A stretch of 64,000 bases of DNA, taken from NCBI GenBank assembly GCA_011915565.1, contig GCA_011915565.1_3920.1; one strand, 5' to 3'. Of the stretch, positions 40,179-58,996 are shown piece after piece. The stretch is from a phage. The number at the start of each line of letters is the position of its first letter. Positions within the stretch are counted from its first letter, which is position 1. A program made the translations under genes and the position numbers. The notes under the pieces are model-generated. The model saw only the letters and a list, made by a program, of their open reading frames with translations. It was not told the DNA's origin and searched no databases.

Positions 40179-41960
40179 ATGACTAAATCACTTTATGCAG
40201 TACCAGCAGGTTTAAACGCAGATGCTTACAAATCTGGTCATGTTTACCAGTACCCTAGTGCAACAGAGTACTTGATGTTCAACCTGACACCACGTAGTGA
40301 CAAATGGTTTAACAGCCCCTTAGCAATTGATGGTGTAGTAGCTTTTGGTATTCAACGTTTCGTTAAAGATTACTTGATAGACCACTGGAACGCCACTTTC
40401 TTTGAACGTGATAAAAAAGAAGCCATTGATGAAATCTTAGAAGTTATGAATGGTGTTCTGGGTAAAGATGCTATCGGTCGAGAGCATTGGGAAGCACTTC
40501 ACGACTTAGGTTATCTACCAGTTGAAGTATACGCTGTAGAAGAAGGTACAGTTGTTCCTATGCGTGTACCAATGATTGTCTTCCAGAACACTGTTTCAGG
40601 TTTCCATTGGGTAGCGGGATATCTGGAAGATGCTTTCTCTGCTGAGATTTGGAAGGCTTGTACCATTGCAACTATTGCATTGCATTATAAACGCATCTGT
40701 AAGAAGTGGGCTGACCTTACTTGCGACAATGACTTACATTTACCTTATCAGTGCCATGACTTTGCTATGCGTGGTATGTCCGGCTTTACTGATGACGCAT
40801 TTAACGCTGTAGGCCACTTAACCAGCTTTAAAGGGACTGATAGCTTCCCTGCTGTATATACAGCTAAACGCATCTACGGACAGTCTTACCCAGTCTCTGA
40901 TATTGGTGGTTCTGTACCAGCCACTGAACACTCTGTAATGTGTGCAAACATTGCTTGGGAAGGTGGTAATGAGTTGGTTGAAGAAGAAAGACGCTTTAAA
41001 GGTGAGTTGCAAACCTTCCGTCGCTTCTTAACAGAAACTTATCCAACTGGTATTGCAAGTGTTGTTTCAGACACTTATAACTTCTGGAGAACTGTGTCAG
41101 AAATCTTACCAGCACTCCGTAAAGAAATTATGGAACGTGATGGCAAACTGGTAATTCGTCCTGACTCTGGAGACCCTGTACACATTGTCACAGGTTATAA
41201 AGCAATCCACTTAGAGTGTGCTAAAAAGGCTTATTATGAGCACCTAAGCAATCTGGAAGCCAGTGACACAATGCTGAATGCTGTTCTGAACATGAAGCTT
41301 GAAAACATCAGCTATGGTATTGCTGGATGGCTACTGTCAGAAGGCTACGAAATGGTTGTTGACAGAGAAGACTTTGAAGTTGCTGATACAGTGATGTTGA
41401 AGAACGCTTATATGGTTGGTTCTGCAAACGTTGTAACACGCCCTGTAGCAGAGATTGATGGAGCTATTAAGACCTTGTATAACATCTTTGGAGGAACTAT
41501 TAACTCTAAAGGTTTTAAGGTACTGGATGAGCACATTGGCCTTATCTATGGCGACTCTATCACGTTGGAACGTGCAAACGAAATCCTGAAGCGTCTGTAT
41601 GAAATGGGGTTTGCAAGCTCTAACGTGGTGTTTGGTGTAGGCTCTTACACTTACCAGTACATGACTCGTGACACCTTTGCATTTGCTGTCAAAGCAACTC
41701 TTGCAAGCATTGGTGGCAAAGAGATTATGCTTGCAAAAGACCCTAAAACAGATAGTGGTGTTAAGAAATCTGCCTTTGGTGGTGTAGCACCTATGTGGGA
41801 TGGTGAGAATTTGAAAGCTGTAGATGGCTATGGATTCCAGAGCTTTGCAGATGCACTTGAACATCCAGCTTGTGCTTTACGTTTAGTCTTTAGCGACTCT
41901 GAGCAGTACGGTTACACAACTCTTGGTGATATTCGAAATAATATTGACAATCAGCTTTAA
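40179..41960 (+). CDS. nadV: nicotinamide phosphoribosyltransferase-like enzyme (NAMPT/NadV family)
   Basis: 593 aa; size, composition and position next to a Prs-like gene fit NAMPT/NadV. Confidence 0.8.
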   Translation: MTKSLYAVPAGLNADAYKSGHVYQYPSATEYLMFNLTPRSDKWFNSPLAIDGVVAFGIQRFVKDYLIDHWNATFFERDKKEAIDEILEVMNGVLGKDAIGREHWEALHDLGYLPVEVYAVEEGTVVPMRVPMIVFQNTVSGFHWVAGYLEDAFSAEIWKACTIATIALHYKRICKKWADLTCDNDLHLPYQCHDFAMRGMSGFTDDAFNAVGHLTSFKGTDSFPAVYTAKRIYGQSYPVSDIGGSVPATEHSVMCANIAWEGGNELVEEERRFKGELQTFRRFLTETYPTGIASVVSDTYNFWRTVSEILPALRKEIMERDGKLVIRPDSGDPVHIVTGYKAIHLECAKKAYYEHLSNLEASDTMLNAVLNMKLENISYGIAGWLLSEGYEMVVDREDFEVADTVMLKNAYMVGSANVVTRPVAEIDGAIKTLYNIFGGTINSKGFKVLDEHIGLIYGDSITLERANEILKRLYEMGFASSNVVFGVGSYTYQYMTRDTFAFAVKATLASIGGKEIMLAKDPKTDSGVKKSAFGGVAPMWDGENLKAVDGYGFQSFADALEHPACALRLVFSDSEQYGYTTLGDIRNNIDNQL

Positions 41961-46191: not shown

Positions 46192-46740
46192 ATGAAGAAA
46201 TTGATTCTAGGTTTGTGCTTAATGTTTACAGCACACTTATCTTATGCAGTTGACTGCCCAGAGCTATCAATTAGCCAAAAAGTGAACATGTTAAAAGCTT
46301 ACCAGTATGGTGAGAATAACATGGGTAAAGGTTGGGGTATCACTCTAGCAGCTATAGCCTTACAAGAGTCAGAGTTAGGTCTGAAGGTAGAAAATAAAAA
46401 GACCCATGACTATGGTATCTTCCAGAATCACTTGAAGACTGTTGTAAAGCGTAACAAAATTAGTCCTAATGTTGCTAAAAAGAAACTCTTAAAAGATTTT
46501 GACTATGCTGCGAAGGAAACGCACAAAGAACTTGAGTTTTGGACAAAGGTGCATGGTCAGCCAAAGTCAAAGAAGACTTTACAAAAAGTTTTAGCATCAT
46601 ATAATGCTGGGTATTCGTACAGAATCCCTAAAGCTAAGAAGTATTCTCAAGATGTCTATAACAACATGAAAGTTATTGCTCAATGTGAATTTGCAACAAA
46701 CATTTCTAAGGTAAACCATGAAAAAATTAAAAAAGTCTGA
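46192..46740 (+). CDS. secreted lytic transglycosylase-like (SLT domain) protein
   Basis: Signal peptide MKKLILGLCLMFTAHLSYA; SLT-like motifs ALQESELG, YGIFQ, SYNAGYSY. Confidence 0.55.
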   Translation: MKKLILGLCLMFTAHLSYAVDCPELSISQKVNMLKAYQYGENNMGKGWGITLAAIALQESELGLKVENKKTHDYGIFQNHLKTVVKRNKISPNVAKKKLLKDFDYAAKETHKELEFWTKVHGQPKSKKTLQKVLASYNAGYSYRIPKAKKYSQDVYNNMKVIAQCEFATNISKVNHEKIKKV

Positions 46741-49740: not shown

Positions 49741-50526
49741 ATGGGTATTGTAAAAATAATTAATGGTGATATCTTTGCCGCATTTGATAAAGGTAAGTTT
49801 GACATCATCGGTCACGGTTGCAACTGTATGAACTTAATGGGTGCAGGTATCGCTGACAAGATTTCTAAACTTTACCCAAAAGCGTATGAGACCGATACAG
49901 AAGTTTATCTGTATGCAGGTGGTATAGGTCACAAACCCTGTGAAAATTTACTAGGTAATTTCTCTGTAGCACGTTTAAAACAAGGTCGTATAGCTAATCT
50001 TTACACTCAGCTTAAGACTGGTAAAGATGCCCGATACAGTGCTTTAGAGTCATCTTTGAAACAGCTTAACAGATACTGTGAAGTTAATCAGTTGAAGAAA
50101 GTTGGGTTACCTATGATTGGTGCAGGTATCGGTGGACTTGACCCTCAAGCCGTTACCGTTATCATTAATCAGGTGATGAAGAGTGTAGATGTGTATCTGT
50201 ATGTCTACGAAGGAGAGATGTACCACAAGTTACGCTCAGGTTGGAATAACTACTGCGAACCAGAATACTTTGCAGGTGTAGTAACGTTCACAGACAATGC
50301 AGTTACCCTCTTCAGACGAAGAAAAGGTAAGATACATCAAAGTAACCCTCCGGTTGAAAAGATGTCTCTAAGTAACGCTCTAGTTACCCACCTGTCGAAG
50401 AGCAATCACAGAATTGCAGTAACATTTGGCAGTGATGCAGACACATATATCTATGCAAGGACTGATGAAGATATCGAGGAGATTTTCTCATCACAAGAAG
50501 TTACCTTCTTAGACGCAAAGAACTAA
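49741..50526 (+). CDS. macro-like domain protein (candidate ADP-ribose binding/hydrolase)
   Basis: NGDIF...DIIGHGCNCMNLMGAGIADKI and LPMIGAGIGGLDPQAV resemble macrodomain motifs (GDIT...IVNAAN..L.GGGGV and FPAISTGVYG). Confidence 0.5.
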   Translation: MGIVKIINGDIFAAFDKGKFDIIGHGCNCMNLMGAGIADKISKLYPKAYETDTEVYLYAGGIGHKPCENLLGNFSVARLKQGRIANLYTQLKTGKDARYSALESSLKQLNRYCEVNQLKKVGLPMIGAGIGGLDPQAVTVIINQVMKSVDVYLYVYEGEMYHKLRSGWNNYCEPEYFAGVVTFTDNAVTLFRRRKGKIHQSNPPVEKMSLSNALVTHLSKSNHRIAVTFGSDADTYIYARTDEDIEEIFSSQEVTFLDAKN

Positions 50527-50555
50527 TAAACTCTGTAGAATATTCACAATAGATT

Positions 50556-50603
50556 AAGCCTTCCTTATCTGGTAAATTTTTCAGGTAAGGAAGGCTTTTT
50601 TAT
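50556..50603 (+). terminator. strong intrinsic terminator
   Basis: 11 bp stem aagccttcctta...taaggaaggctt followed by ttttttattt. Confidence 0.75.
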
Positions 50604-50795
50604 TTCAAGATTGTGCAGGTAGAGTTCTGTAGAGAAATCTGTAGAGAAAATTTTGAACTCCAAAGAGAAAATTCATTTTCAAACTGTGCAGGTAATCTCC
50701 AAAGAGCTTTTTCATTTTCAAAACGTGCAGACCCCGCTCAGGTCGGGCAAGAAAAATCATTTTAGAATTGTGCAGGTAGGTGGATGCAGGTGGGG
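50603..50795 (+). repeat. iteron-like direct repeat cluster
   Basis: Four copies of (c)attt(t)ca(a/g)a(a/t)(c/t)gtgcag(gta) at about 50605, 50674, 50713 and 50758, plus tandem ctccaaagag-N6-cattttcaaa and ctgtagagaaa x2. Confidence 0.6.
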
Positions 50796-50954
50796 ATGTC
50801 GCCATTTCTCACAAGGCTAACACATCTGGAAATAAAAGTCAACAGAAAAATTTGTAGCGGATTGAAAAATAATTCTTGATTGTAGTTCTGTTTTGTGGTA
50901 GTCGCGTGCGCCCGTTTCATTACAATTTTTGCAAAAATATTTTTAAAATTCCTA

Positions 50955-51014
50955 TTGACTCTTTGAGTATGGTTATCTAATATTTGCATCAACGGGGAGG
51001 GAATGACCTTCCCC
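50955..51014 (+). promoter_or_regulatory. type A cassette: sigma70-type promoter plus conserved 5' leader stem-loop
   Basis: TTGACT-N17-TAATAT then leader hairpin ggggagggaatgaccttcccc and conserved actaa(a/g)taaagtcct(t)aaact(a)ggagattc(a/t)aaaatg. Same leader recurs at about 53121, 53985, 54917, 56058 and 56384. Confidence 0.6.
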
Positions 51015-51046
51015 ACTAAGTAAAGTCCTAAACTGGAGATTCTAAA

Positions 51047-51427
51047 ATGGCATACCGTGCACCTAAATTCATCAACAAAGACAACTTCCGCAACGCACTG
51101 GAGAAGTCACTTGATGAAAAATTTAACGGCAAATTGATTGTTGTTCACGCATTCAATTTTAAGTATGATATTAACGGGAATAAAATCAACCATTACACGG
51201 CAACCATGTTAGATGGTACGCTATCAAGTGAAAAAGCCGTACTGAATGCACTTGCAGGACGTGGTAAAAACCTGATAAGCTGCAATAAGAGACGTTATCA
51301 AGGTGGCGCATATGGTTATGATGATGCTGTTTACCATCTTGAAAATATGGGCTATTCAGTGGAGAAAGCTGGAGCGTCTCAAATAATTGGTAGTGATGGT
51401 TATGTGACAATCTTCAAAATTAAATAA
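51047..51427 (+). CDS. small early-region protein 1
   Basis: 126 aa ORF behind a type A cassette. Confidence 0.5.
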   Translation: MAYRAPKFINKDNFRNALEKSLDEKFNGKLIVVHAFNFKYDINGNKINHYTATMLDGTLSSEKAVLNALAGRGKNLISCNKRRYQGGAYGYDDAVYHLENMGYSVEKAGASQIIGSDGYVTIFKIK

Positions 51428-51440
51428 AAGTACTTTACAA

Positions 51441-51513
51441 GGGGCTTATAGTTCGATAAAGTAAGCCCCAGATAAAGAGCTTTATCACTCAATCCTAAAT
51501 TGGAGATTCAAAA
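51441..51513 (+). promoter_or_regulatory. type B cassette: intergenic hairpin plus conserved ATAAAGAGCTTTA box and RBS
   Basis: ggggcttatagttcgataaagtaagcccc then cagataaagagctttatcactcaatcctaaattggagattcaaaaatg. Variants at about 51786, 52391 and 53460 keep the stem by compensatory or wobble changes. Confidence 0.55.
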
Positions 51514-51771
51514 ATGGCTATTATCAAAAACGTTGTAGTTCCTGCAAAAACTCGTGATGACGCTCGCATCATGGCGAAAAAGTTAGGCGGGAAAGTGGTT
51601 GACAACGGAAAACAATCTGCTGTAAGATGGAGCGTGAAGGCTGATAAGCAACTAACCTTAAAACGCAGTTCAAACAATCTTTTTAAAGGTGTAAAATCAC
51701 TCGGTAAAGTGAACGTGTTTACCAAAAAAGGCTATAAAATGCACTTATCATTAACTGGCAATTTAATCTGA
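51514..51771 (+). CDS. small early-region protein 2
   Basis: 85 aa basic ORF behind a type B cassette. Confidence 0.5.
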   Translation: MAIIKNVVVPAKTRDDARIMAKKLGGKVVDNGKQSAVRWSVKADKQLTLKRSSNNLFKGVKSLGKVNVFTKKGYKMHLSLTGNLI

Positions 51772-51861
51772 TAAAGTACTTTACAGGGGGCTTAAAAGCT
51801 GATATCTTAAGCCCCAGATAAAGAGCTTTACCACTCAATCCTTAAACTAGGAGATTCAAAA

Positions 51862-52374
51862 ATGAAAACTGTAGAAGCTACCTTTGAAGTTGTAAAAGAA
51901 AAATTTTCCATCATTTACGAAGCTGTTAATTGCTTTGAAGCAAGCCATAACCTTGATAATTGGGAGTTTACAGATGACCATCAAGGCGGCGTGACTATTA
52001 AAAACCCCAACTGTCAGCGTAATGATTTTAAATATGCAATCCCTTTACATTACAGCCTTAAACAGCTTTCAAGTGACTATGCAAAACAAGGCCGGGAAAA
52101 TCCATCAAAAGAGGCTTACATAAGCTTACAGAAAGAACTAGAAAGAGATTTAGAGGCTTCAGAATACAACCTTGCCGCGAAAGTTGTCGATGCAAATGGT
52201 CAAACAATTTTAGATAGTTTTTATATTGGTTACGCTTTCGATTGGTGCTATAGTGACGGCGATGATTTAGAGGATAGACTAAAAGAAGAGGTGAGCAATT
52301 CAGACGCAGAATCTGAAGTATTAGAACGCTTGGAAGCATTAAAAGATTCAGTGATGAATATCTTTAAGAACTAA
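51862..52374 (+). CDS. small early-region protein 3
   Basis: 170 aa acidic ORF behind a type B cassette. Confidence 0.5.
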   Translation: MKTVEATFEVVKEKFSIIYEAVNCFEASHNLDNWEFTDDHQGGVTIKNPNCQRNDFKYAIPLHYSLKQLSSDYAKQGRENPSKEAYISLQKELERDLEASEYNLAAKVVDANGQTILDSFYIGYAFDWCYSDGDDLEDRLKEEVSNSDAESEVLERLEALKDSVMNIFKN

Positions 52375-52462
52375 ATAGATTTCTTTACACGGGGCTATCA
52401 AGCTGATAAGATAGCCCCAGATAAAGAGATTTATCAACTATCCTAAACTGGAGATTCAAAAA

Positions 52463-52759
52463 ATGAAATTATCAAATAAAGTCCGTGAAAATCTAAGCAA
52501 GTTACTCAACAAAATTGATTTTATCGAGACATCAAGGAATAGTCATGATGTTATGGAATGGTTACACGGAAAAATCAAAGGCCGTCGTGTAGTGATTTGC
52601 TTATGGAATAGTTGCAGGGAATATAAAAAACCTGTATTACAAGTCAATATCTATGATGATACTTTTAAAAGCCCTGTAAAGTCTAAAAGTGATTTATTAG
52701 AATCCTATGAGATAACTGTAAATGGCAAAGTATCAAGTAAAGAGGAAACACCATGTTAA
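52463..52759 (+). CDS. small early-region protein 4
   Basis: 98 aa ORF behind a type B cassette. Confidence 0.5.
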   Translation: MKLSNKVRENLSKLLNKIDFIETSRNSHDVMEWLHGKIKGRRVVICLWNSCREYKKPVLQVNIYDDTFKSPVKSKSDLLESYEITVNGKVSSKEETPC

Positions 52760-53085
52760 TGACTGGTATCACTGCAATCATTGCCATTTTCGCGCTATAT
52801 AAGGCATATAAAGCCTATAATCTAGCAAATAAGGCAATCACACAGCAGGTTAGCAATAGCCTTGTAGAAAGCTTTCTAGGGCGTCTCAGTGATGAGCAAA
52901 TAAAGCGGTTAGAAATGAGCTTCAGATTCAAAGCGAAAACCTATCAGATAAGTGACATCTTCAAGGATGATTTCCAGTTAGTCGATGATTATAATTCTCT
53001 GATAAATGCTTTAAATATCAGTGACTTAAAAGACTACTACGCTGTAATTGTTCAAGAGTTGAGCAAACGAAAACAAAACTGTTGA
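52753..53085 (+). CDS. small early-region membrane protein 5
   Basis: N-terminal hydrophobic helix (MLMTGITAIIAIFALY); overlaps upstream stop. Confidence 0.45.
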   Translation: MLMTGITAIIAIFALYKAYKAYNLANKAITQQVSNSLVESFLGRLSDEQIKRLEMSFRFKAKTYQISDIFKDDFQLVDDYNSLINALNISDLKDYYAVIVQELSKRKQNC

Positions 53086-53110
53086 CACTGATTTTTAGAT
53101 AGATTAAATT
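53082..53110 (+). promoter_or_regulatory. type A cassette promoter
   Basis: TTGACA-N17-TAAATT followed by leader hairpin at 53121-53140. Confidence 0.55.
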
Positions 53111-53174
53111 ACACATCAACGGGGAGGGAACAACCTTCCCACTAAATAAAGTCCTTAAACTAGGAGATTCTAAA

Positions 53175-53447
53175 ATGTATACTACTAACAATGGCCTCAC
53201 TTTGAACGTCACACTACGTCACTATGTAGATGGTGTCATGCACTTTGAAGATTTACAAGCTGAACAACATATCTTAGATTGGCAAGTCGCAGGACTCCAA
53301 AAAACTGCTACGGGATACGGTAAAAAGATTCCAACTAGTTGGAAAGTTCACTATGAAGGACGTTTGCGCAGAATTTATCAAGATGTGCAAAGCAATAGCG
53401 CATCGAGTTACATTATAGTAAAAGGTGAAAAACTGCATTTAGTATAA
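53175..53447 (+). CDS. small early-region protein 6
   Basis: 90 aa ORF behind a type A cassette. Confidence 0.5.
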   Translation: MYTTNNGLTLNVTLRHYVDGVMHFEDLQAEQHILDWQVAGLQKTATGYGKKIPTSWKVHYEGRLRRIYQDVQSNSASSYIIVKGEKLHLV

Positions 53448-53532
53448 AGTACTTTACATGGGGTTTAAAAGTTGGTATCTTAAGCCCCAGATAAAGAGCT
53501 TTACCCCTAAATCCTAAATTGGAGATTCAAAA

Positions 53533-53937
53533 ATGGCTATTAATAATCGTGAGTTATCAATCTTAAAAGCACGTTTAACCGTTAATCGAATCAATGTTAT
53601 CACGTCATCAGCACCAGACGAGACATTACACAACATTATCGGGAAGATTCAAGGTGTTATCTTAGACGTTGAGAATGTAAAAAACTCATTAGCAGACGTT
53701 GCAGCAGGTGTTACACTAGACGGCGCACAATATGAAATGATTGACATGTTAGGCAAATCAAAGGTTATGAATAAAGAGTTAGACTTAAAAATGTTTCGAT
53801 TTGCCGTGAAAGTATGGCTATCTGTCGAGTATGATGCTAATTTTGCAATTGCTGATTTCTTTGCCACTTGGTTGCAACGTAACTTAACAAATCATGATTT
53901 TCGTGATATCTGTGATGCAATTTACGCAGAACTTTAA
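53533..53937 (+). CDS. small early-region protein 7
   Basis: 134 aa ORF behind a type B cassette. Confidence 0.5.
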   Translation: MAINNRELSILKARLTVNRINVITSSAPDETLHNIIGKIQGVILDVENVKNSLADVAAGVTLDGAQYEMIDMLGKSKVMNKELDLKMFRFAVKVWLSVEYDANFAIADFFATWLQRNLTNHDFRDICDAIYAEL

Positions 53938-53945
53938 AAATTTTA

Positions 53946-53974
53946 TTGACACTGATTTTTAGATAGACTAAATT
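53946..53974 (+). promoter_or_regulatory. type A cassette promoter
   Basis: TTGACA-N17-TAAATT, near-identical to 53082-53110; leader hairpin 53985-54007. Confidence 0.55.
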
Positions 53975-54037
53975 ACACATCAACGGGGAGGGAACAACCT
54001 TCCCACTAAATAAAGTCCTTAAACTAGGAGATTCAAA

Positions 54038-54580
54038 ATGAAATGCTTTCACGGTACTACTCAAGAAAACTTTATCAACCTGATTAATAACGGTGATAAA
54101 CCATCAGGTGTATGGAATTGTTCGGATATGGACGGCAATTTTTACGTGTACCCAGAAAATAAACTCTATGGTGATGATGAGGAAGAGATAGCATCGGAAG
54201 GTATCCAGCAAGCTCTAGGAAATGCCACTATCACGGCAGCTTTTCAGATGAAAACTCAAAATATTGTTATCTTAGAACTTGACATTCCAGAGGATGAGCT
54301 AAATGATGATTATTCTTGTGATAACATGTCAAATATAGCAAGCTTTACAGAGTACTTTGATGTAAATTGGATTAAAAAGGTCTATACAACAGAGTTCAAC
54401 GCTATGTATTCACCTTTTTGTCTCCCTTCACTGGATAATCCAAATTTGAATTATCTTGATGAAACATTGGAGCTACTTGCTAAAAGTATCCAACAATCCG
54501 ACAGTATTCAGGTTTTTTGTGACATCATGGATACACTGACAGAAAACATTGTAGAGAGTGATTTAAAGGTCTTTTTCTAA
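54038..54580 (+). CDS. small early-region protein 8
   Basis: 180 aa acidic ORF behind a type A cassette. Confidence 0.5.
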   Translation: MKCFHGTTQENFINLINNGDKPSGVWNCSDMDGNFYVYPENKLYGDDEEEIASEGIQQALGNATITAAFQMKTQNIVILELDIPEDELNDDYSCDNMSNIASFTEYFDVNWIKKVYTTEFNAMYSPFCLPSLDNPNLNYLDETLELLAKSIQQSDSIQVFCDIMDTLTENIVESDLKVFF

Positions 54581-54646
54581 AAACCTATACATTCACCTTA
54601 TAAACACTGATTAACCCCTTACAGGGGCTTTTAGAGGGCTTAAATC

Positions 54647-54880
54647 ATGCTTACAACCATTTATCTCATCCTTTCTATCTGTAACGGTCATTCATGTGAC
54701 TTTAAAGGGCTTGAAGAGTTTACAGGAAGTAAAGAAAATGCTATTCAGGTTTGCCAGATAGCAAGACAAGACTATCCCGCCAGTGACGACATTCAATGCT
54801 ACTTTAAGACAGAAGATGAAGACGGCATCTATTTTGACAGCGTTGACGGTCAATATGAAATTATCATTGAAAAAGACTAG
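54647..54880 (+). CDS. small early-region protein 9 (possible lipoprotein)
   Basis: N-terminus MLTTIYLILSICNG; atypical upstream region. Confidence 0.4.
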   Translation: MLTTIYLILSICNGHSCDFKGLEEFTGSKENAIQVCQIARQDYPASDDIQCYFKTEDEDGIYFDSVDGQYEIIIEKD

Positions 54881-54971
54881 ACAAGCCTGATAAAAGTCTG
54901 TAAATTACACATCAACGGGGAGGGAATGACCTTCCCCACTAAATAAAGTCCTTAAACTAGGAGATTCAAAA

Positions 54972-55313
54972 ATGGCTTATGTAACCGTAATTACCGATAA
55001 AGCTGGCTCATCTTGGTCAACTCAGGTTAGTGATAAGATGTCGCCTATGCAGTGCCTAAAATACTTTGAGCAGTGGAACAAAGGCGAGGATGTAAGCCCC
55101 TTTCAAGTGATGCAAATCATCCATACAGATAACGAAGGGAATAAAACGACCTTGAACAGTGAATACTACGCAAGCCGTTTTGAAACGAGAAGTAAAACAA
55201 TGAAGCTTTTACGTGAATCCGGCTATTCTCATATTGCCGCGCTAATCTGGGATGACCTGCTAAAAAGCCAGCGTATCAGCTATGTAAAACCTGAAAAAAT
55301 ATTCATCAGTTAA
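54972..55313 (+). CDS. small early-region protein 10
   Basis: 113 aa ORF behind a type A cassette. Confidence 0.5.
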   Translation: MAYVTVITDKAGSSWSTQVSDKMSPMQCLKYFEQWNKGEDVSPFQVMQIIHTDNEGNKTTLNSEYYASRFETRSKTMKLLRESGYSHIAALIWDDLLKSQRISYVKPEKIFIS

Positions 55314-55513
55314 TCAATAACTTACAAAAAACTTTTAAAAAAGTGTTGACAATACCCCTTGACATTGGTAACTTTGTTCGAGGGGGTTTATCTAAAAGGG
55401 ATTCACTTAAAAGATTCTTTATAGATAAACTTAAAAAATTGCTTGCAATCATCTTCCAAAAACTTTATAGTTTATCTCAAGCAATAATGCTTTCCTAAAC
55501 TGGAGATTCAAAA

Positions 55514-56044
55514 ATGAACAAGTTCAAAGCTATCAACTACATTCGCTCAAATAGTGTCATGTCTAAGCCTGTTAAGGATACCTACGAATTTCGTTGCAAT
55601 GGTGAACACTTTGCTACCATCACCAAATCAAACAACGGGGCTTATTATATCCATCGTCGTAATGTTTCTACGGTTGTAGTTTCTAACTTTATGCAAGCTG
55701 TAGCGGAACTCCTCCCGCTCTTCTTAGAAAAGTATGCCGTACAGTGTGAAAGTGTTCGTGAATGCACTAAAACAGTGTTAAACGGTTATCGTATGGCTTA
55801 CGAGCGCTCTTTAAAGAATCTCAATAAATACTACAAAGCACCGGAAGGCACTTCATCCACAGCCTACGGGGTAGGGGGCTTCAATGTCAGCCTTTACGAA
55901 GTGGAAGAAATCGAGCTTTATGACCATCGCCCAAATGGTTACGCTAAGACACTGGGAGAGGGGTTAATGCTGAATATCAAGAACTTAGAAAAAACTTTAA
56001 GAGAAATTGAAAAAGATATTGACGAGACAATCAAAAATCTGTAA
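55514..56044 (+). CDS. small early-region protein 11
   Basis: 176 aa ORF behind a 200 bp leader carrying tandem TTGACA boxes and the conserved RBS block. Confidence 0.5.
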   Translation: MNKFKAINYIRSNSVMSKPVKDTYEFRCNGEHFATITKSNNGAYYIHRRNVSTVVVSNFMQAVAELLPLFLEKYAVQCESVRECTKTVLNGYRMAYERSLKNLNKYYKAPEGTSSTAYGVGGFNVSLYEVEEIELYDHRPNGYAKTLGEGLMLNIKNLEKTLREIEKDIDETIKNL

Positions 56045-56106
56045 ATTGTCAATCAACGGGGGGTAACCTGCCCCACTAAACAAAATCCTAAACTGGAGTT
56101 ATCAAG

Positions 56107-56370
56107 ATGGAAAACGTAGAATTAACCACACTATTGCAGATTGCAACTGACAAAGAAGACGTAGCGTTGTTTCACCGTATCGAAAGTGATTTGTTCAATG
56201 GTGAAATCATTAAAGAATCTTACGAAGTTGTCGGATTCAAAGATGGTAAAGCATTTGGCTTTTTTGACCTCGACAAAAGCAAAGCGGTTACAATGTACGA
56301 TGTTCTATCTTGTGAAATTCTGACAAAATACAACGAAAAAAGGCTTGCAACCTACGCCAATATGCAGTAA
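56107..56370 (+). CDS. small early-region protein 12
   Basis: 87 aa acidic ORF behind a diverged type A leader. Confidence 0.5.
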   Translation: MENVELTTLLQIATDKEDVALFHRIESDLFNGEIIKESYEVVGFKDGKAFGFFDLDKSKAVTMYDVLSCEILTKYNEKRLATYANMQ

Positions 56371-56437
56371 ATTACTAATCAACGGGGAGGGAATGACCTT
56401 CCCACTAAACAAAGTCCTAAACTGGAGAATCTAAATT

Positions 56438-56686
56438 ATGTCAACTATCCGCGTAACTGTTAATGCTTATGGCTGCCACCAACTTGATGCAAAATTCGAT
56501 ATCGGTGGAACAGATAACACCTTTGACCTTATCAAAATGCTGATTCAGCAGGTGATACCAGATTATAACCCTACTGATGACTTCTGGAAAGATGCCGTAA
56601 AAGAAGCCATAAACGAGGAATCTCACTACCATTATTGGGGTGACTTGATTATCTCTCTGTACTACAGCAAACAAGGTTACAACTAA
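56438..56686 (+). CDS. small early-region protein 13
   Basis: 82 aa ORF behind a type A cassette. Confidence 0.5.
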   Translation: MSTIRVTVNAYGCHQLDAKFDIGGTDNTFDLIKMLIQQVIPDYNPTDDFWKDAVKEAINEESHYHYWGDLIISLYYSKQGYN

Positions 56687-56759
56687 TCGACGCAGCGGGG
56701 CTATTTAGCCCCAGATACCTGAAAAGCTCCTTCTCATAGGGGCTTTTTTACGTCTATAA

Positions 56760-58320
56760 AGAGACTCTATACAGTCCCTTTCCTTTCCTTCCTAGAATCT
56801 ATCCCACTAATTCGATAGAGACTATCTCATACCTTAAAAAGCAATAACTCTATAGTCTACTCTATAACCTCTTATCAAATCAACTTAAATATAAGCCCAT
56901 AACCCGAAAGGGAAGGGCAACCACTAAAACGCTCTATAAAGCTCTATAACAGCCTTATCAACCTAACTTAAGCAATCATATTAACCCACTCTAAAAAGCC
57001 CTTTATAGAGCTTCCCAGAGCCTTAAAAGAATCTTATAAGGGTGTAAGCTTTATCATCTCGTTAGTATTCTTGTGAATAACTAAAAAGGGATTGGTAGTT
57101 CCTTTAAAGTATGTTATAGGGGCTATAAAGTTACTCAAAAGTTACGTAAAAGAGGCTATAAAGTTACGTGATAGATAGCTTAAAAGTTACGTAAATGCTA
57201 GCCCCCTTAACATTTTCTTAACAATTTCTTAACAATCCCTACATAGTTATGCTTTTAAGGCACTTGTTAGAGACTTGTTAGCCCTTGTTAAATCTCTGTT
57301 AAGACCACGTAAAAGCCTTGTAAGAGTCTTTGACATAGCCTTAAAAGCCTCTGTAAAGCCCTATAAAGAGCTATCCATACAGTTGAGGGGTAGATACTAG
57401 GAAGAGATTTAAAAGAGCTTATAAAGAGTTATAGAGAGCTTTTAAGAGGTATGTTTAAGAGTTCACTAAGAAAGGAAAGGGAATGATAAGAAAAGAGATA
57501 GTGACCATGCTAATAGCTTGTTAAAAAGATTAAACACTTGTTAGAAACTTGTTAATTATCTTAACAAAATAACTCTTTAAAATTAACTTGTTAACTCTTG
57601 TTAGTCATCTGTTAAGCCTCTGTAAAGTCTATGTATCAACTGTTAAGAAACTGTTACATCCCTGTTAGTTCTGTTAAGAATCTGTTAAGACCTCTGAAGA
57701 GATGTTAAGAGAATGTAGTAGCTGTTAAGAGATTGTTAAGGATATTTTAAAATTTTGCAAAGTACTTGTAAGGGAGCTGTTAAGGGCTACCAAGCAGATA
57801 TACATCCTAATCAGATATTTTTGAGTTCCTTCAAAGACCCTAAAAAATGACTTGATAGTCCTATTTTATAAAAATTTTAAAAATCTGAATAATTACCTAG
57901 ACAGTCTTTTAAAAATACAGGTAGAAACAGGCTTATAAGATACCTTGTTAGTACCGTGTTAGACCTTGTGAGATAAGGTCTGTAAAGATATTCCTGTTAA
58001 GTTTGTTAAAACAGTCTATATAGAGGCTTAGTAGTGCCTAGTGAACACCTATAGAGGGTAACATAGCTGACATAGAGATTAAGGGGTGTATAGAGGCTTC
58101 TAAGAGCGTATAGAGAGATGGTTAAGGTGATTGTATAGGTTGTTAAGAAGGCTTGTTAGAAGAGTGTTTAGAGGGCTTATTAAAGGGCTAGTTAGAAGGG
58201 TTATACAGAGGGCTATTAAGACCACTAGATAGTTACTAAGATACTATATAGTACTATATAACTATATAGAGAGTAAGATTAAGGAGGTTGTTAAGAAGGA
58301 TAGATATTTTGTTCACATAT
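56760..58320. repeat. ORF-free array of short degenerate repeats
   Basis: No ORF of 60 aa or more in any frame across about 1.7 kb; about 30 same-strand copies of (c)tgtta(a/g) concentrated at 57190-58300; recurring ctataaag(ag), tatagag and aaagttacgtaaa motifs. Confidence 0.75.
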
Positions 58321-58402
58321 GATGGTGACCCAGAGGTTGGGACAACCGATAAAATTTTATAAAAATTAAAAAGCCCCCGATTAAGGAGGCTCTTAAGATA
58401 TT

Positions 58403-58996
58403 TTAAATCAGTGTTTCCAGAACTGTTTTAAGGGATGACTTAGTTGTCTGATAAAAATGAATGAATCCGTTGTTGTTATCGAATATCTGCATCATGATAT
58501 CATCTCCCTTGATTGGGTATACTCGGATATCATAGTGAAAACCATTAAAGACACAAGACCCATTACAGAATGCGCTAAAGTCATCCACTGAGATATACTC
58601 TTCATGTCCTGTGATTTTTATACAAACACCTTTACTCGGTCTCTTAGGGTTGATATCTTCCATCACAGACATACTCTGTCCACCAAGAGATACCATAGTG
58701 ACCACTTTACGGTTCTTCTGTCTAAAGTACATCTTAACTTTCTGCAAAGTGTCTTCATAGAACGGATAAGACCTAGCTACAAAGATTCCTTCAAGTGGCT
58801 CTTTACCATTTTCAACTTCTCTGGTATGTCGTACTGCAAAGATAATTTGTTGGAACCAGTCAAGATTTTCTTCGGAGAGTGCTTCTCGAACATCACTCCA
58901 GTCAAGGACTAAGTAGTTACCTTCAACTTCTTTTAAGTTATCTTTTTCCATATCTATCACACCATTATCGTAAAACTTGGTAAGCTGGTACTGCAA
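58403..58996 (-). CDS. hypothetical protein
   Basis: 197 aa; last gene of the leftward operon. Confidence 0.45.
   Translation of the reverse strand: MQYQLTKFYDNGVIDMEKDNLKEVEGNYLVLDWSDVREALSEENLDWFQQIIFAVRHTREVENGKEPLEGIFVARSYPFYEDTLQKVKMYFRQKNRKVVTMVSLGGQSMSVMEDINPKRPSKGVCIKITGHEEYISVDDFSAFCNGSCVFNGFHYDIRVYPIKGDDIMMQIFDNNNGFIHFYQTTKSSLKTVLETLI

Follow-up and report, generated by a model that had tools for sequence, protein, structure and literature searches.

Among described systems, the closest to the DNA considered here are the promoter/early stem-loop elements (PeSLs) of the T4-like phages RB49/phi1, T4/PST, and KVP40/nt-1, which are early promoter/stem-loop units (PMC2839356, PMC4122927) laid out with the stem-loop upstream of the promoter, where it acts as a terminator (PMC4122927). 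Our literature search found the PeSL concept applied to T4-like phages only. Here, we describe an island of 13 small open reading frames (ORFs) on the + strand, at positions 51047-56686 of a 64,000-nucleotide (nt) stretch of phage DNA (GenBank assembly GCA_011915565.1, contig GCA_011915565.1_3920.1; hereafter, the window), in which most of the ORFs are preceded by one of two repeated cassettes, called type A and type B. By sequence match, the window belongs to a Felixounavirus of the subfamily Ounavirinae, as do, at the subfamily level, the annotated relatives that we examined. The coordinates of the 13 ORFs, as well as the likeness of the cassettes to PeSLs, had been proposed in a first-pass annotation made from the letters of the window, and the coordinates were borne out. 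We think it likely that the island is a hyperplastic early-gene region of an Ounavirinae phage, built from self-contained expression modules.

Within the window, the elements of the cassettes occur in the island only. The block around the ribosome-binding site (RBS) was matched five times at ≤3 mismatches, the type A hairpin five times (exact-class matches), and the type B block AGCCCCAGATAAAGAGCTTTA four times, each against an expectation of 0. Type A cassettes stand 5' of ORF1, 6, 8, 10, 12 (with the variant hairpin GGGGGGTAACCTGCCCC), and 13, and type B cassettes 5' of ORF2, 3, 4, and 7. The statement of the first-pass annotation that every ORF lies behind a cassette was therefore too sweeping, as a cassette precedes only 10 of the 13 (six type A and four type B), although the RBS block is common to 11. 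The exceptions are ORF5, which has no cassette, overlaps ORF4 (ATGTTAATGA), and is translationally coupled; ORF9, which has neither a cassette nor a promoter of its own and is preceded by a terminator-like hairpin (CCCCTTACAGGGGCTTTT); and ORF11, which follows a 200-nt structured spacer, lacks the GGGG hairpin, and has another promoter (TTGCAA-N17-TATAGT) together with the shared RBS block. A consensus scan placed -35/-10 pairs 17 nt apart on the coding strand in all cassettes, from which we infer promoter activity.

The type A cassette comprises, in order, a TTGACA-like -35 element, 17 nt, a -10 element (TAAATT or TAATAT), a 10-nt segment containing an invariant CATCAAC, a GC hairpin, ACTAAATAAAG, and the RBS block. 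In two cases, the -35 element overlaps the stop codon of the preceding gene. Among the relatives, 63 of 65 cassettes have a promoter spacing of 17 nt and 54 of 65 a gap of 10 nt between -10 and hairpin, whilst the 12 nt located 5' of the -35 element are 83% A+T. The hairpin has 7-8 bp with one G.U wobble. All 54 distinct type A hairpins fold, with a mean free energy of -9.8 kcal/mol versus -2.65 kcal/mol in shuffles, and their inner pairs vary between GC, AU, CG, and GU (GGGGAGG/CCUUCCCC, GGGAGG/CCUCCC, GGGGC/GCCCC). A transcript starting ~7 nt after the -10 element would carry the stem-loop ~3 nt from its 5' end, and stem-loops in that position are known to make E. coli mRNAs more stable.

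Type B had been described as a hairpin followed by a separate conserved block, "ccagATAAAGAGCTTTA". Both are present, but the block (conserved as "AGATAAAGAGCTTTA") is the 3' arm of a longer hairpin of ~57 nt, and the promoter within it had been missed. The hairpin consists of an AU lower stem of 11-12 bp, in which the AT-rich TAAAGTACTTTA pairs with TAAAGAGCTTTA, a 3x3 internal loop, a GC-based upper stem of 9-10 bp (GGGGCUUAA/UUAAGCCCC), and a loop of 10-13 nt; the minimum free energy of the whole is -16 to -30 kcal/mol. Judged from its conserved motifs, type B would also be a promoter, of the form TTTACA-N17-(TGn)TAnnnT. The -35 element, TTTACA, lies right after the preceding stop codon in all 89 distinct cores, and TAnnnT follows 17-18 nt past it in 88 of them. 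The T and A of the -10 element are invariant columns in an otherwise variable loop, a TGn-extended -10 is found in 72 of 126 cassettes, and the consensus promoter scan flagged all four type B copies of the window.

The claim that the stems are maintained by compensatory or wobble changes held up in the relatives. Across 66 distinct type B sequences, 92.5% of cells are paired, compared to at most 55.5% when the partners are slid; pair 5-57 is GC in 44 sequences and UA in 14, and pair 20-42 is evenly divided between CG and UG (32 each). In Erwinia phages, the layout is the same with an upper stem of GGUG...CACC in place of GGGG...CCCC, and TTTACA, the 17-nt spacing, and TAGTAT or TGATAATCT are retained. 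The compensatory and wobble changes, those of the Erwinia phages included, point to a + strand RNA structure.

These data also bear upon the idea that a dimeric DNA-binding protein, encoded by phage or host, uses TAAAGTACTTTA and TAAAGAGCTTTA as operators to shut off or mark early promoters, the hairpin being incidental. Such a role would suit the fact that TAAAGTACTTTA is a perfect 12-bp palindrome, that the two sites bracket the -35 element and the predicted start, and that both are nearly invariant across genera. However, in the type B cassettes located after gene 3, each near-palindrome is asymmetric and the pairing between the two elements is still intact; there, as well as in Suspvirus, self-symmetry is lost and cross-pairing kept by G-C to U-A changes. 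Since pairing between the elements is kept despite the loss of self-symmetry, the pattern indicates a hairpin rather than two operator palindromes. Furthermore, U.G and G.U wobbles are tolerated on the + strand only, so the structure is specific to that strand, i.e., to sense RNA. We consequently rejected the operator reading as the main explanation, and consider it distinctly improbable, although a hairpin would be compatible with additional protein binding.

Another view would be that the hairpins are transcript-end or stability elements within one or more long operons. Type B would then contain no promoter, the genes would be driven by the type A promoters and read-through, and both TTTACA and the TA of the loop would be structural. 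Indeed, TTTACA forms part of the lower stem, the annotators of KhF3 and XTG1 labelled the cassette elements "terminator", and ORF5 and ORF9 clearly rely on upstream transcription. On the other hand, TA...T is invariant at 17-18 nt from TTTACA within a variable loop, TGn is frequent, and the TTTACA/TA spacing holds in the Erwinia phages, where the stem has changed. In addition, neither type A nor type B hairpins have a U-tract, and none was flagged in a terminator scan. On balance, we regard the long-operon view as unlikely.

The RBS block, CCU(U)AAAYU(A)GGAG, is itself predicted to fold, with CCU(U) pairing with the first bases of the Shine-Dalgarno (SD) sequence. The block comes in two matched forms: 180 junctions have CCU..GGAG, 92 have CCUU..AGGAG, and none has a mixed form. 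GGAG lies 8 nt 5' of the ATG in 195 of 282 junctions. In the Erwinia phages, the block reads CCUU-AUAA-AGGA instead.

To follow the cassettes through related genomes, we used 34 loci from GenBank phages and IMG/VR contigs that were anchored on the macro-domain gene found 5' of the island. Two of them (L045 and L046) were left out, being distant macro-domain matches (41% identity) with unrelated downstream genes. The 32 islands retained are from Felixounavirus, Suspvirus, and Mooglevirus. Gene order is identical in all 32, namely (i s b f) 1 2 3 [4 5] (n) 6 7 (e a) 8 9 (k l m G) 10 (h) 11 12 13, where the numbers are those of the ORFs of the window and the letters denote further genes. Within this order, content varies: five loci lack gene 3, radambza has neither gene 2 nor gene 3, many loci are without gene 12, and the presence of a, e, b, n, and k differs from one island to another. 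The expectation of gene shuffling thus stands in so far as single genes are gained, lost, or replaced, with breakpoints in cassettes, and not in the sense of reshuffling, as the order is fixed in all relatives.

The junctions reveal how the cassettes are inherited. Past gene 7 there is a type A cassette in every case, be the next gene a, e, or 8, and past genes a and e there is always type B; the loop signature seen on the 3' side of gene 1 recurs in 1->2, 1->3, and 1->4 junctions alike. The promoter/hairpin part of the cassette belongs to, and travels with, the upstream gene. Where gene 3 is absent, crossovers map to at least three points, one within CCCCAGATAAAGAG, one past CTTTACCAC, and one inside the RBS block. 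Such variable points are the pattern of general homologous recombination and not of a site-specific reaction. They therefore led us to reject the notion that a site-specific recombinase acts on the cassettes as on the attC hairpins at the 3' ends of integron gene cassettes. What makes that notion attractive is the imperfect ~57-nt inverted repeat located just past each stop codon and moving with the gene. Nevertheless, the attC core sites RYYYAAC ... GTTRRRY are absent (the cassette reads TAAAGTACTTTAC ... GATAAAGAGCTTTA), a Pfam scan, which covered the neighbouring genes only, found no recombinase among them, and both conversion patches (see below) and repeats of homology length suit general recombination. 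We judge an attC-like mechanism to be very improbable.

Direct comparisons of close relatives are consistent with exchange by general recombination. The window and contig L019 differ at eight positions in 5.65 kb, seven of them within cassettes, and at three of the differences (51485, 51487, and 51490) the patch in the first type B cassette of L019, a metagenomic contig, equals the sequence of the fourth (53504-53509), which looks like gene conversion between sister cassettes. Compared to Escherichia phage vB_EcoM-Ro111lw (L002), the island is 99.9% identical up to ~55449; the two are almost identical over 50633-55448 and diverge from a mosaic breakpoint at 55449, inside the ORF11 promoter. 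From there, at a shared TTGCTTGCAATCA, the window switches to a promoter of the Suspvirus/Mooglevirus type without a GGGG hairpin, at a position where most Felixounaviruses have a type A cassette. In Mordin (L009), the junction between genes b and 1 holds two type B units fused head to tail at a shared CTTTAC, and L039 has two copies of gene 2; each of these arrangements looks as if it had arisen by unequal exchange between cassettes.

One could also suppose that the repeats are passive, functionless leftovers of a recent tandem gene duplication, as the array is tandem and ORF2 and ORF7 share identical first codons (ATGGCTATTA). Against this, the 13 proteins are in different PHROG families, and the cassettes have outlasted the DNA around them: they are kept, with compensatory changes, across several genera, while flanking coding DNA falls to 60-70% protein identity. 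This origin strikes us as extremely improbable.

The conservation in related phages proposed in the first-pass annotation was confirmed on a wider scale. Type B occurs at 1445 places in 288 phage records, each of those examined being of the Felix O1 type, with Erwinia and Hafnia phages among them; type A was found in 245 records, with enterobacterial hosts only and Felix-O1-like in every case examined. Ro111lw has four type B and six type A places, the same count as the island. As a whole, the island matches 258 phage records, and the names of nearly all of these indicate Felix-O1-type phages of Escherichia, Salmonella, Shigella, or Citrobacter; the matches recorded for Staphylococcus SA1 and Campylobacter are probably misassigned. 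The repeats themselves have been recorded before. The Felix O1 genome paper of 2010 listed, without interpretation and outside of its predicted promoters, 57-bp and 39-bp direct repeats that correspond exactly to types B and A, respectively (PMC3185647). The wV8 record labels them DR_1, DR_7, and DR_9, although the wV8 paper does not mention them, and the Mordin record labels a 14-bp repeat_region.

Taken together, we propose that the cassettes are layered expression modules. Each would supply a host-type sigma70 promoter for the next gene, an RNA hairpin, and a shared AU-rich leader that pairs with the Shine-Dalgarno sequence. For type B, the whole hairpin would be found only in read-through RNA from the upstream gene, whereas transcripts from the embedded promoter would carry the 3' arm alone; we infer that the hairpin marks, protects, processes, or attenuates the 3' end of the upstream message. 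As the cassettes are 85-100 bp direct repeats that recur every 300-600 bp, they amount to portable homology, and recombination and gene conversion between them could delete, insert, or swap single genes with the neighbours undisturbed. The island would, in effect, be a gene-cassette array for accessory early proteins. A bolder and rather doubtful version is that type B is a bifunctional DNA/RNA element, in which a working sigma70 promoter sits inside a ~57-nt hairpin serving as a processing, attenuation, or protein-recognition site, so that upstream transcription would be mechanically coupled to initiation at the cassette. Together with the SD-pairing leader, it would form an integrase-free, integron-like system across the Ounavirinae, perhaps read by a dedicated phage factor that times early shut-off or promotes exchange.

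Several points weigh against the expression-module proposal. The transcription starts and 3' ends of the cassettes are predictions, and our literature search returned nothing usable on start-site mapping or transcriptomes of Felixounaviruses. As the hairpins lack a U-tract, a terminator role of the PeSL kind is not indicated, and an Rfam search of 50400-58500 (E ≤ 1) gave chance-level matches only and no family. Most stem positions are invariant, so that covariation rests on a few pairs in related sequences, and for such related, near-invariant data shuffle controls exaggerate significance. The conservation of TTTACA has two possible causes, given that this hexamer also contributes to the lower stem. 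When the window is compared with its relatives, 101 of 139 homology-block ends (37 of 52 unique positions) are intergenic although intergenic DNA makes up 19% of the island; this enrichment speaks for exchange at the cassettes, but is partly expected for any gene-level indel. Lastly, the early expression that had been anticipated for the island agrees only in part with published reverse-transcription PCR data for Felix O1. There, ORFs 13, 16, 20, 21, and 22, which correspond to the macro-domain gene and island genes 3, 7, 10, and 11, were maximal at 5 min, which favours the proposal, but ORFs 17, 19, and 23, which are likewise island genes, were assigned to 25 min in what is an end-point and coarse assay (PMC3185647).

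All features of the island are on the + strand, and predicted starts lie ~7 nt 3' of the -10 element (near 50991, 53118, 53982, 54914, 56055, and 56381 for type A; near 51469, 51815, 52419, and 53488 for type B). The first type A cassette (50955-51046; -35 TTGACT at 50955-60, -10 TAATAT at 50978-83, hairpin 50994-51014, SD 51035-38) leads to ORF1 (51047-51427), which encodes a basic protein of 126 amino acids (aa; phrog_4495, unknown function) that is present or absent among relatives. The first type B cassette (51428-51513) has its hairpin at 51428-51484 with the 3' arm at 51470-84, -35 TTTACA at 51434-39, -10 TAAAGT at 51457-62, and SD at 51502-05. It precedes ORF2 (51514-51771; 85 aa, isoelectric point 10.8, phrog_5089), a gene that is variable in the relatives. 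Next come the second type B cassette (51774-51861; hairpin 51774-51830, -35 at 51780-85, TGn-extended -10 TATCTT at 51803-08, SD 51850-53) and ORF3 (51862-52374; 170 aa, acidic, phrog_4190), the gene whose absence leaves differing junctions in several relatives. The third (52378-52462; hairpin 52378-52433, -35 at 52384-89, -10 TAAGAT at 52407-12, SD 52450-53) is a compensated variant with a continuous lower stem of 12 bp, and serves ORF4 (52463-52759; 98 aa, phrog_4401), which is found in all 32 related islands. The overlapping ORF5 (52753-53085) encodes 110 aa with an N-terminal hydrophobic segment.

The second type A cassette (53082-53174) has -35 TTGACA over the ORF5 stop codon, -10 TAAATT at 53105-10, the hairpin at 53121-40, and SD at 53163-66, and is followed by ORF6 (53175-53447; 90 aa, phrog_3436). 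In the fourth type B cassette (53447-53532; hairpin 53447-53503, -35 at 53453-58, TGn-extended -10 TATCTT at 53476-81, SD 53521-24), the upper stem contains a U.G wobble; ORF7 (53533-53937; 134 aa, phrog_4327) lies behind it. The third type A cassette (53946-54037; -35 at 53946-51, -10 at 53969-74, hairpin 53985-54004, SD 54027-30), which in relatives sits 5' of the extra genes a or e, precedes ORF8 (54038-54580; 180 aa, very acidic). Between ORF8 and ORF9 (54647-54880; 77 aa, acidic, hydrophobic N-terminus), the terminator-like hairpin CCCCTTACAGGGG plus CTTTT occupies 54615-54632, its U-run having been judged by eye. The spacer as a whole (54578-54649) is a separate conserved element with compensatory stem variants (GCCCC/GGGGC versus GGCCC/GGGCC).

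In the fourth type A cassette (54878-54971; -10 at 54901-06, hairpin 54917-37, SD 54960-63), the -35 element, TAGACA, is located over the ORF9 stop codon. ORF10 (54972-55313; 113 aa, phrog_4318) is followed by a complex spacer (55346-55513) with two promoter-like pairs, two hairpins, and the shared RBS block. The first pair, TTGACA-N17-TAACTT, is overlapped by a hairpin at 55355-86 (CCCCTTGA...TCGAGGGGG) with a U-rich tail to 55392; a long hairpin of 43 nt (55387-55429) and the promoter TTGCAA-N17-TATAGT (55443-71) come next. The ~130-nt segment 5' of this promoter (55314-55442) is conserved in three genera and would be a third "promoter inside a hairpin" unit, or possibly a small RNA or attenuator. 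ORF11 (55514-56044; 176 aa, phrog_4725) contains in its 3' end the -35 element (TTGACG) of the fifth type A cassette (56019-56106; -10 at 56042-47, variant hairpin 56058-74, SD 56095-98), and ORF12 (56107-56370; 87 aa, phrog_7022), similarly, that of the sixth (56345-56437; -35 TTGCAA, -10 at 56368-73, hairpin 56384-56403, SD 56424-27). The last island gene is ORF13 (56438-56686; 82 aa, phrog_4559). Beyond it are a degenerate type B remnant, GGGGCTATTTAGCCCC+AGATA (56697-56717), which is truncated and lacks promoter and RBS block, and an intrinsic terminator with stem and U-run (56722-56749) that closes the island.

None of the 13 ORFs has a Pfam or NCBIfam match, and each falls in its own PHROGs family of "unknown function". 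The proteins are a mixed set: that of ORF2 is very basic, those of ORF3, 8, and 9 are very acidic, and those of ORF5 and 9 have a hydrophobic N-terminus. ADP-ribosyltransferases have the ART beta-sandwich fold and an NAD-binding H-Y-E or R-S-E triad. Homologs of ORF8, which are confined to the Felix-O1-like phage group, share conserved H5-G-T, Y36/Y38, and E80, and the protein has weak structural similarity to ADP-ribosyltransferase folds. We tentatively suggest that ORF8 may have such a fold, in agreement with a remark by the authors of the Bas63 study; the 13 proteins offered no other functional hint. ORF8 lies 3.5 kb from the macro-domain (ADP-ribose-binding) gene. Its homolog in Bas63, gp107, is conditionally important on E. 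coli S17-1 (PMC11482910). In that phage, the counterpart of the island is bas63_0098-0111, within a tract of small genes with mixed essentiality (PMC11482910).

The first-pass annotation had placed the island beside a macro-like gene and NAD+ genes. The former does adjoin it (49741-50526, 5' of the island; Pfam PF01661), but the NAD+ gene, encoding a NAMPT-like protein (40179-41960), is ~9 kb away. A strong terminator with stem and U-run, identified in the terminator scan, follows the macro-domain gene at 50556-50597, and a spacer of ~350 nt separates it from the start of the island. Between this terminator and the first island promoter (50599-50780) are four copies of a ~21-34-nt motif, CTCCAAAGAG...TTCATTTTCAAAnTGTGCAGGTA; the same CATTTTCAAnnTGTGCA repeats are found in Mooglevirus, there immediately 5' of a start codon, and four times in an Erwinia phage. 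On the other side, 56750-58400 is a repeat-rich non-coding tract of 1.7 kb between convergent transcription units, with opposite-strand genes beyond. It is dense in YTGTTARG/CTTAACA in both orientations, partly in 10-11-nt phase, and also has CTATAAAG-type repeats; close contigs, although near-identical in the island, differ here from 56881 on, by divergence or by indels. The tract could be an origin, a packaging site, or a protein-binding array. We also considered terminal repeats for the DNA to the right of the island, but the 608-bp terminal repeats of UAB_Phi87 could not be placed here and we make no such claim. Upstream, the Mordin record annotates the homolog of an ORF of the window (46192-46740) as [quoted passage not shown]. 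A RegB function, which could have tied the invariant GGAG to a nuclease, was dropped, as the ORF has no Pfam RegB match and PHROGs lists it as "unknown"; the Pfam match to an SLT transglycosylase is sub-threshold only.

If the expression-module reading is right, the PeSL idea of regulatory cassettes that double as recombination linkers and permit safe swaps of small genes would extend beyond T4-like phages. Felix O1 and its relatives are used in diagnostics, biocontrol, and therapy, and Bas63 serves as a model phage. The reading would explain repeats that have been listed uninterpreted in the Felix O1, wV8, and Mordin records since 2009-2010, and the limits of the modules, with the hairpin going with the upstream gene and the RBS block with the downstream gene, could guide the deletion or insertion of payload genes. 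The promoter-inside-hairpin layout would be a compact natural case of a coupled transcript end and start. Lastly, ~25 small early gene families are delimited as candidates for host takeover or counter-defence, including the possible ADP-ribosyltransferase near the macro-domain gene.

How, then, does the island compare to known systems? Its likeness to PeSLs is strong at the level of function. The features shared are intergenic repeats in which an early promoter of sigma70-like sequence is combined with a GGGG...CCCC stem-loop and a Shine-Dalgarno/ATG; clustering in a hyperplastic region of small ORFan genes (here, 10 cassettes in 5.7 kb); and, by sequence, an AT-rich segment 5' of the promoter and a -35/-10 spacing of ~17 nt. 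Further likenesses are that close relatives differ by indels or replacements of single genes, the exchange points falling in the elements, and that degraded "half" elements occur, represented here by the remnant at 56697-56717. The proposed PeSL likeness thus stands with regard to composite promoter/stem-loop/RBS units among small ORFan genes, but not with regard to layout and U-tract. The stem-loop here is inside the promoter (type B) or 10 nt past the -10 element (type A) rather than upstream, there is no U-tract, type B is a much longer two-tier hairpin, and gene order is strictly identical in all relatives. Moreover, the phage is a member of the Ounavirinae and not a T4-like myovirus, and the sequences are unrelated. 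Since the defining layout differs and the host group is another one, we file the cassettes as a variant of the PeSL idea, probably PeSL-like in their working, rather than as PeSLs proper.

Dense tiny early genes with strong host-type promoters and ribosome sites are also a hallmark of the host-takeover module of Bacillus phage SPO1 and of the T4 and T5 early regions. The island resembles these as an array of very small genes of unknown function equipped with promoter and ribosome site, although the sequences are unrelated; we know of no description of the SPO1 module as repeated promoter-hairpin cassettes. To integrons, there is a likeness in the mobile unit, an ORF plus a 3' imperfect inverted repeat, and in its single orientation. 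However, the island has no attC core sites, its crossover points vary, and there is no integrase among the Pfam-scanned neighbours; its cassettes supply the following gene with a predicted promoter, a feature that most integron cassettes lack. The type A hairpin, at ~3 nt from the predicted 5' end, is reminiscent of the mRNA-stabilising 5' stem-loop in the ompA leader. In phage T7, RNase III processing hairpins of ~20 bp of irregular double-stranded RNA lie between early genes. Type B is like them in being an irregular structure of ~50-60 nt with an internal loop, located between early genes, that would leave a 3' hairpin on the upstream message. Its geometry (11-12 + 9-10 bp with an internal loop) is compatible with an RNase III site, cleavage being conjectural, but the T7 sites are without promoters and type B apparently carries one. 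In this last respect, the cassettes recall the coupled or overlapping promoter-terminator elements of bacteria, which are reported to use one short DNA segment both to close a transcript and to open the following one (bioRxiv 10.64898/2026.08.19.745784).

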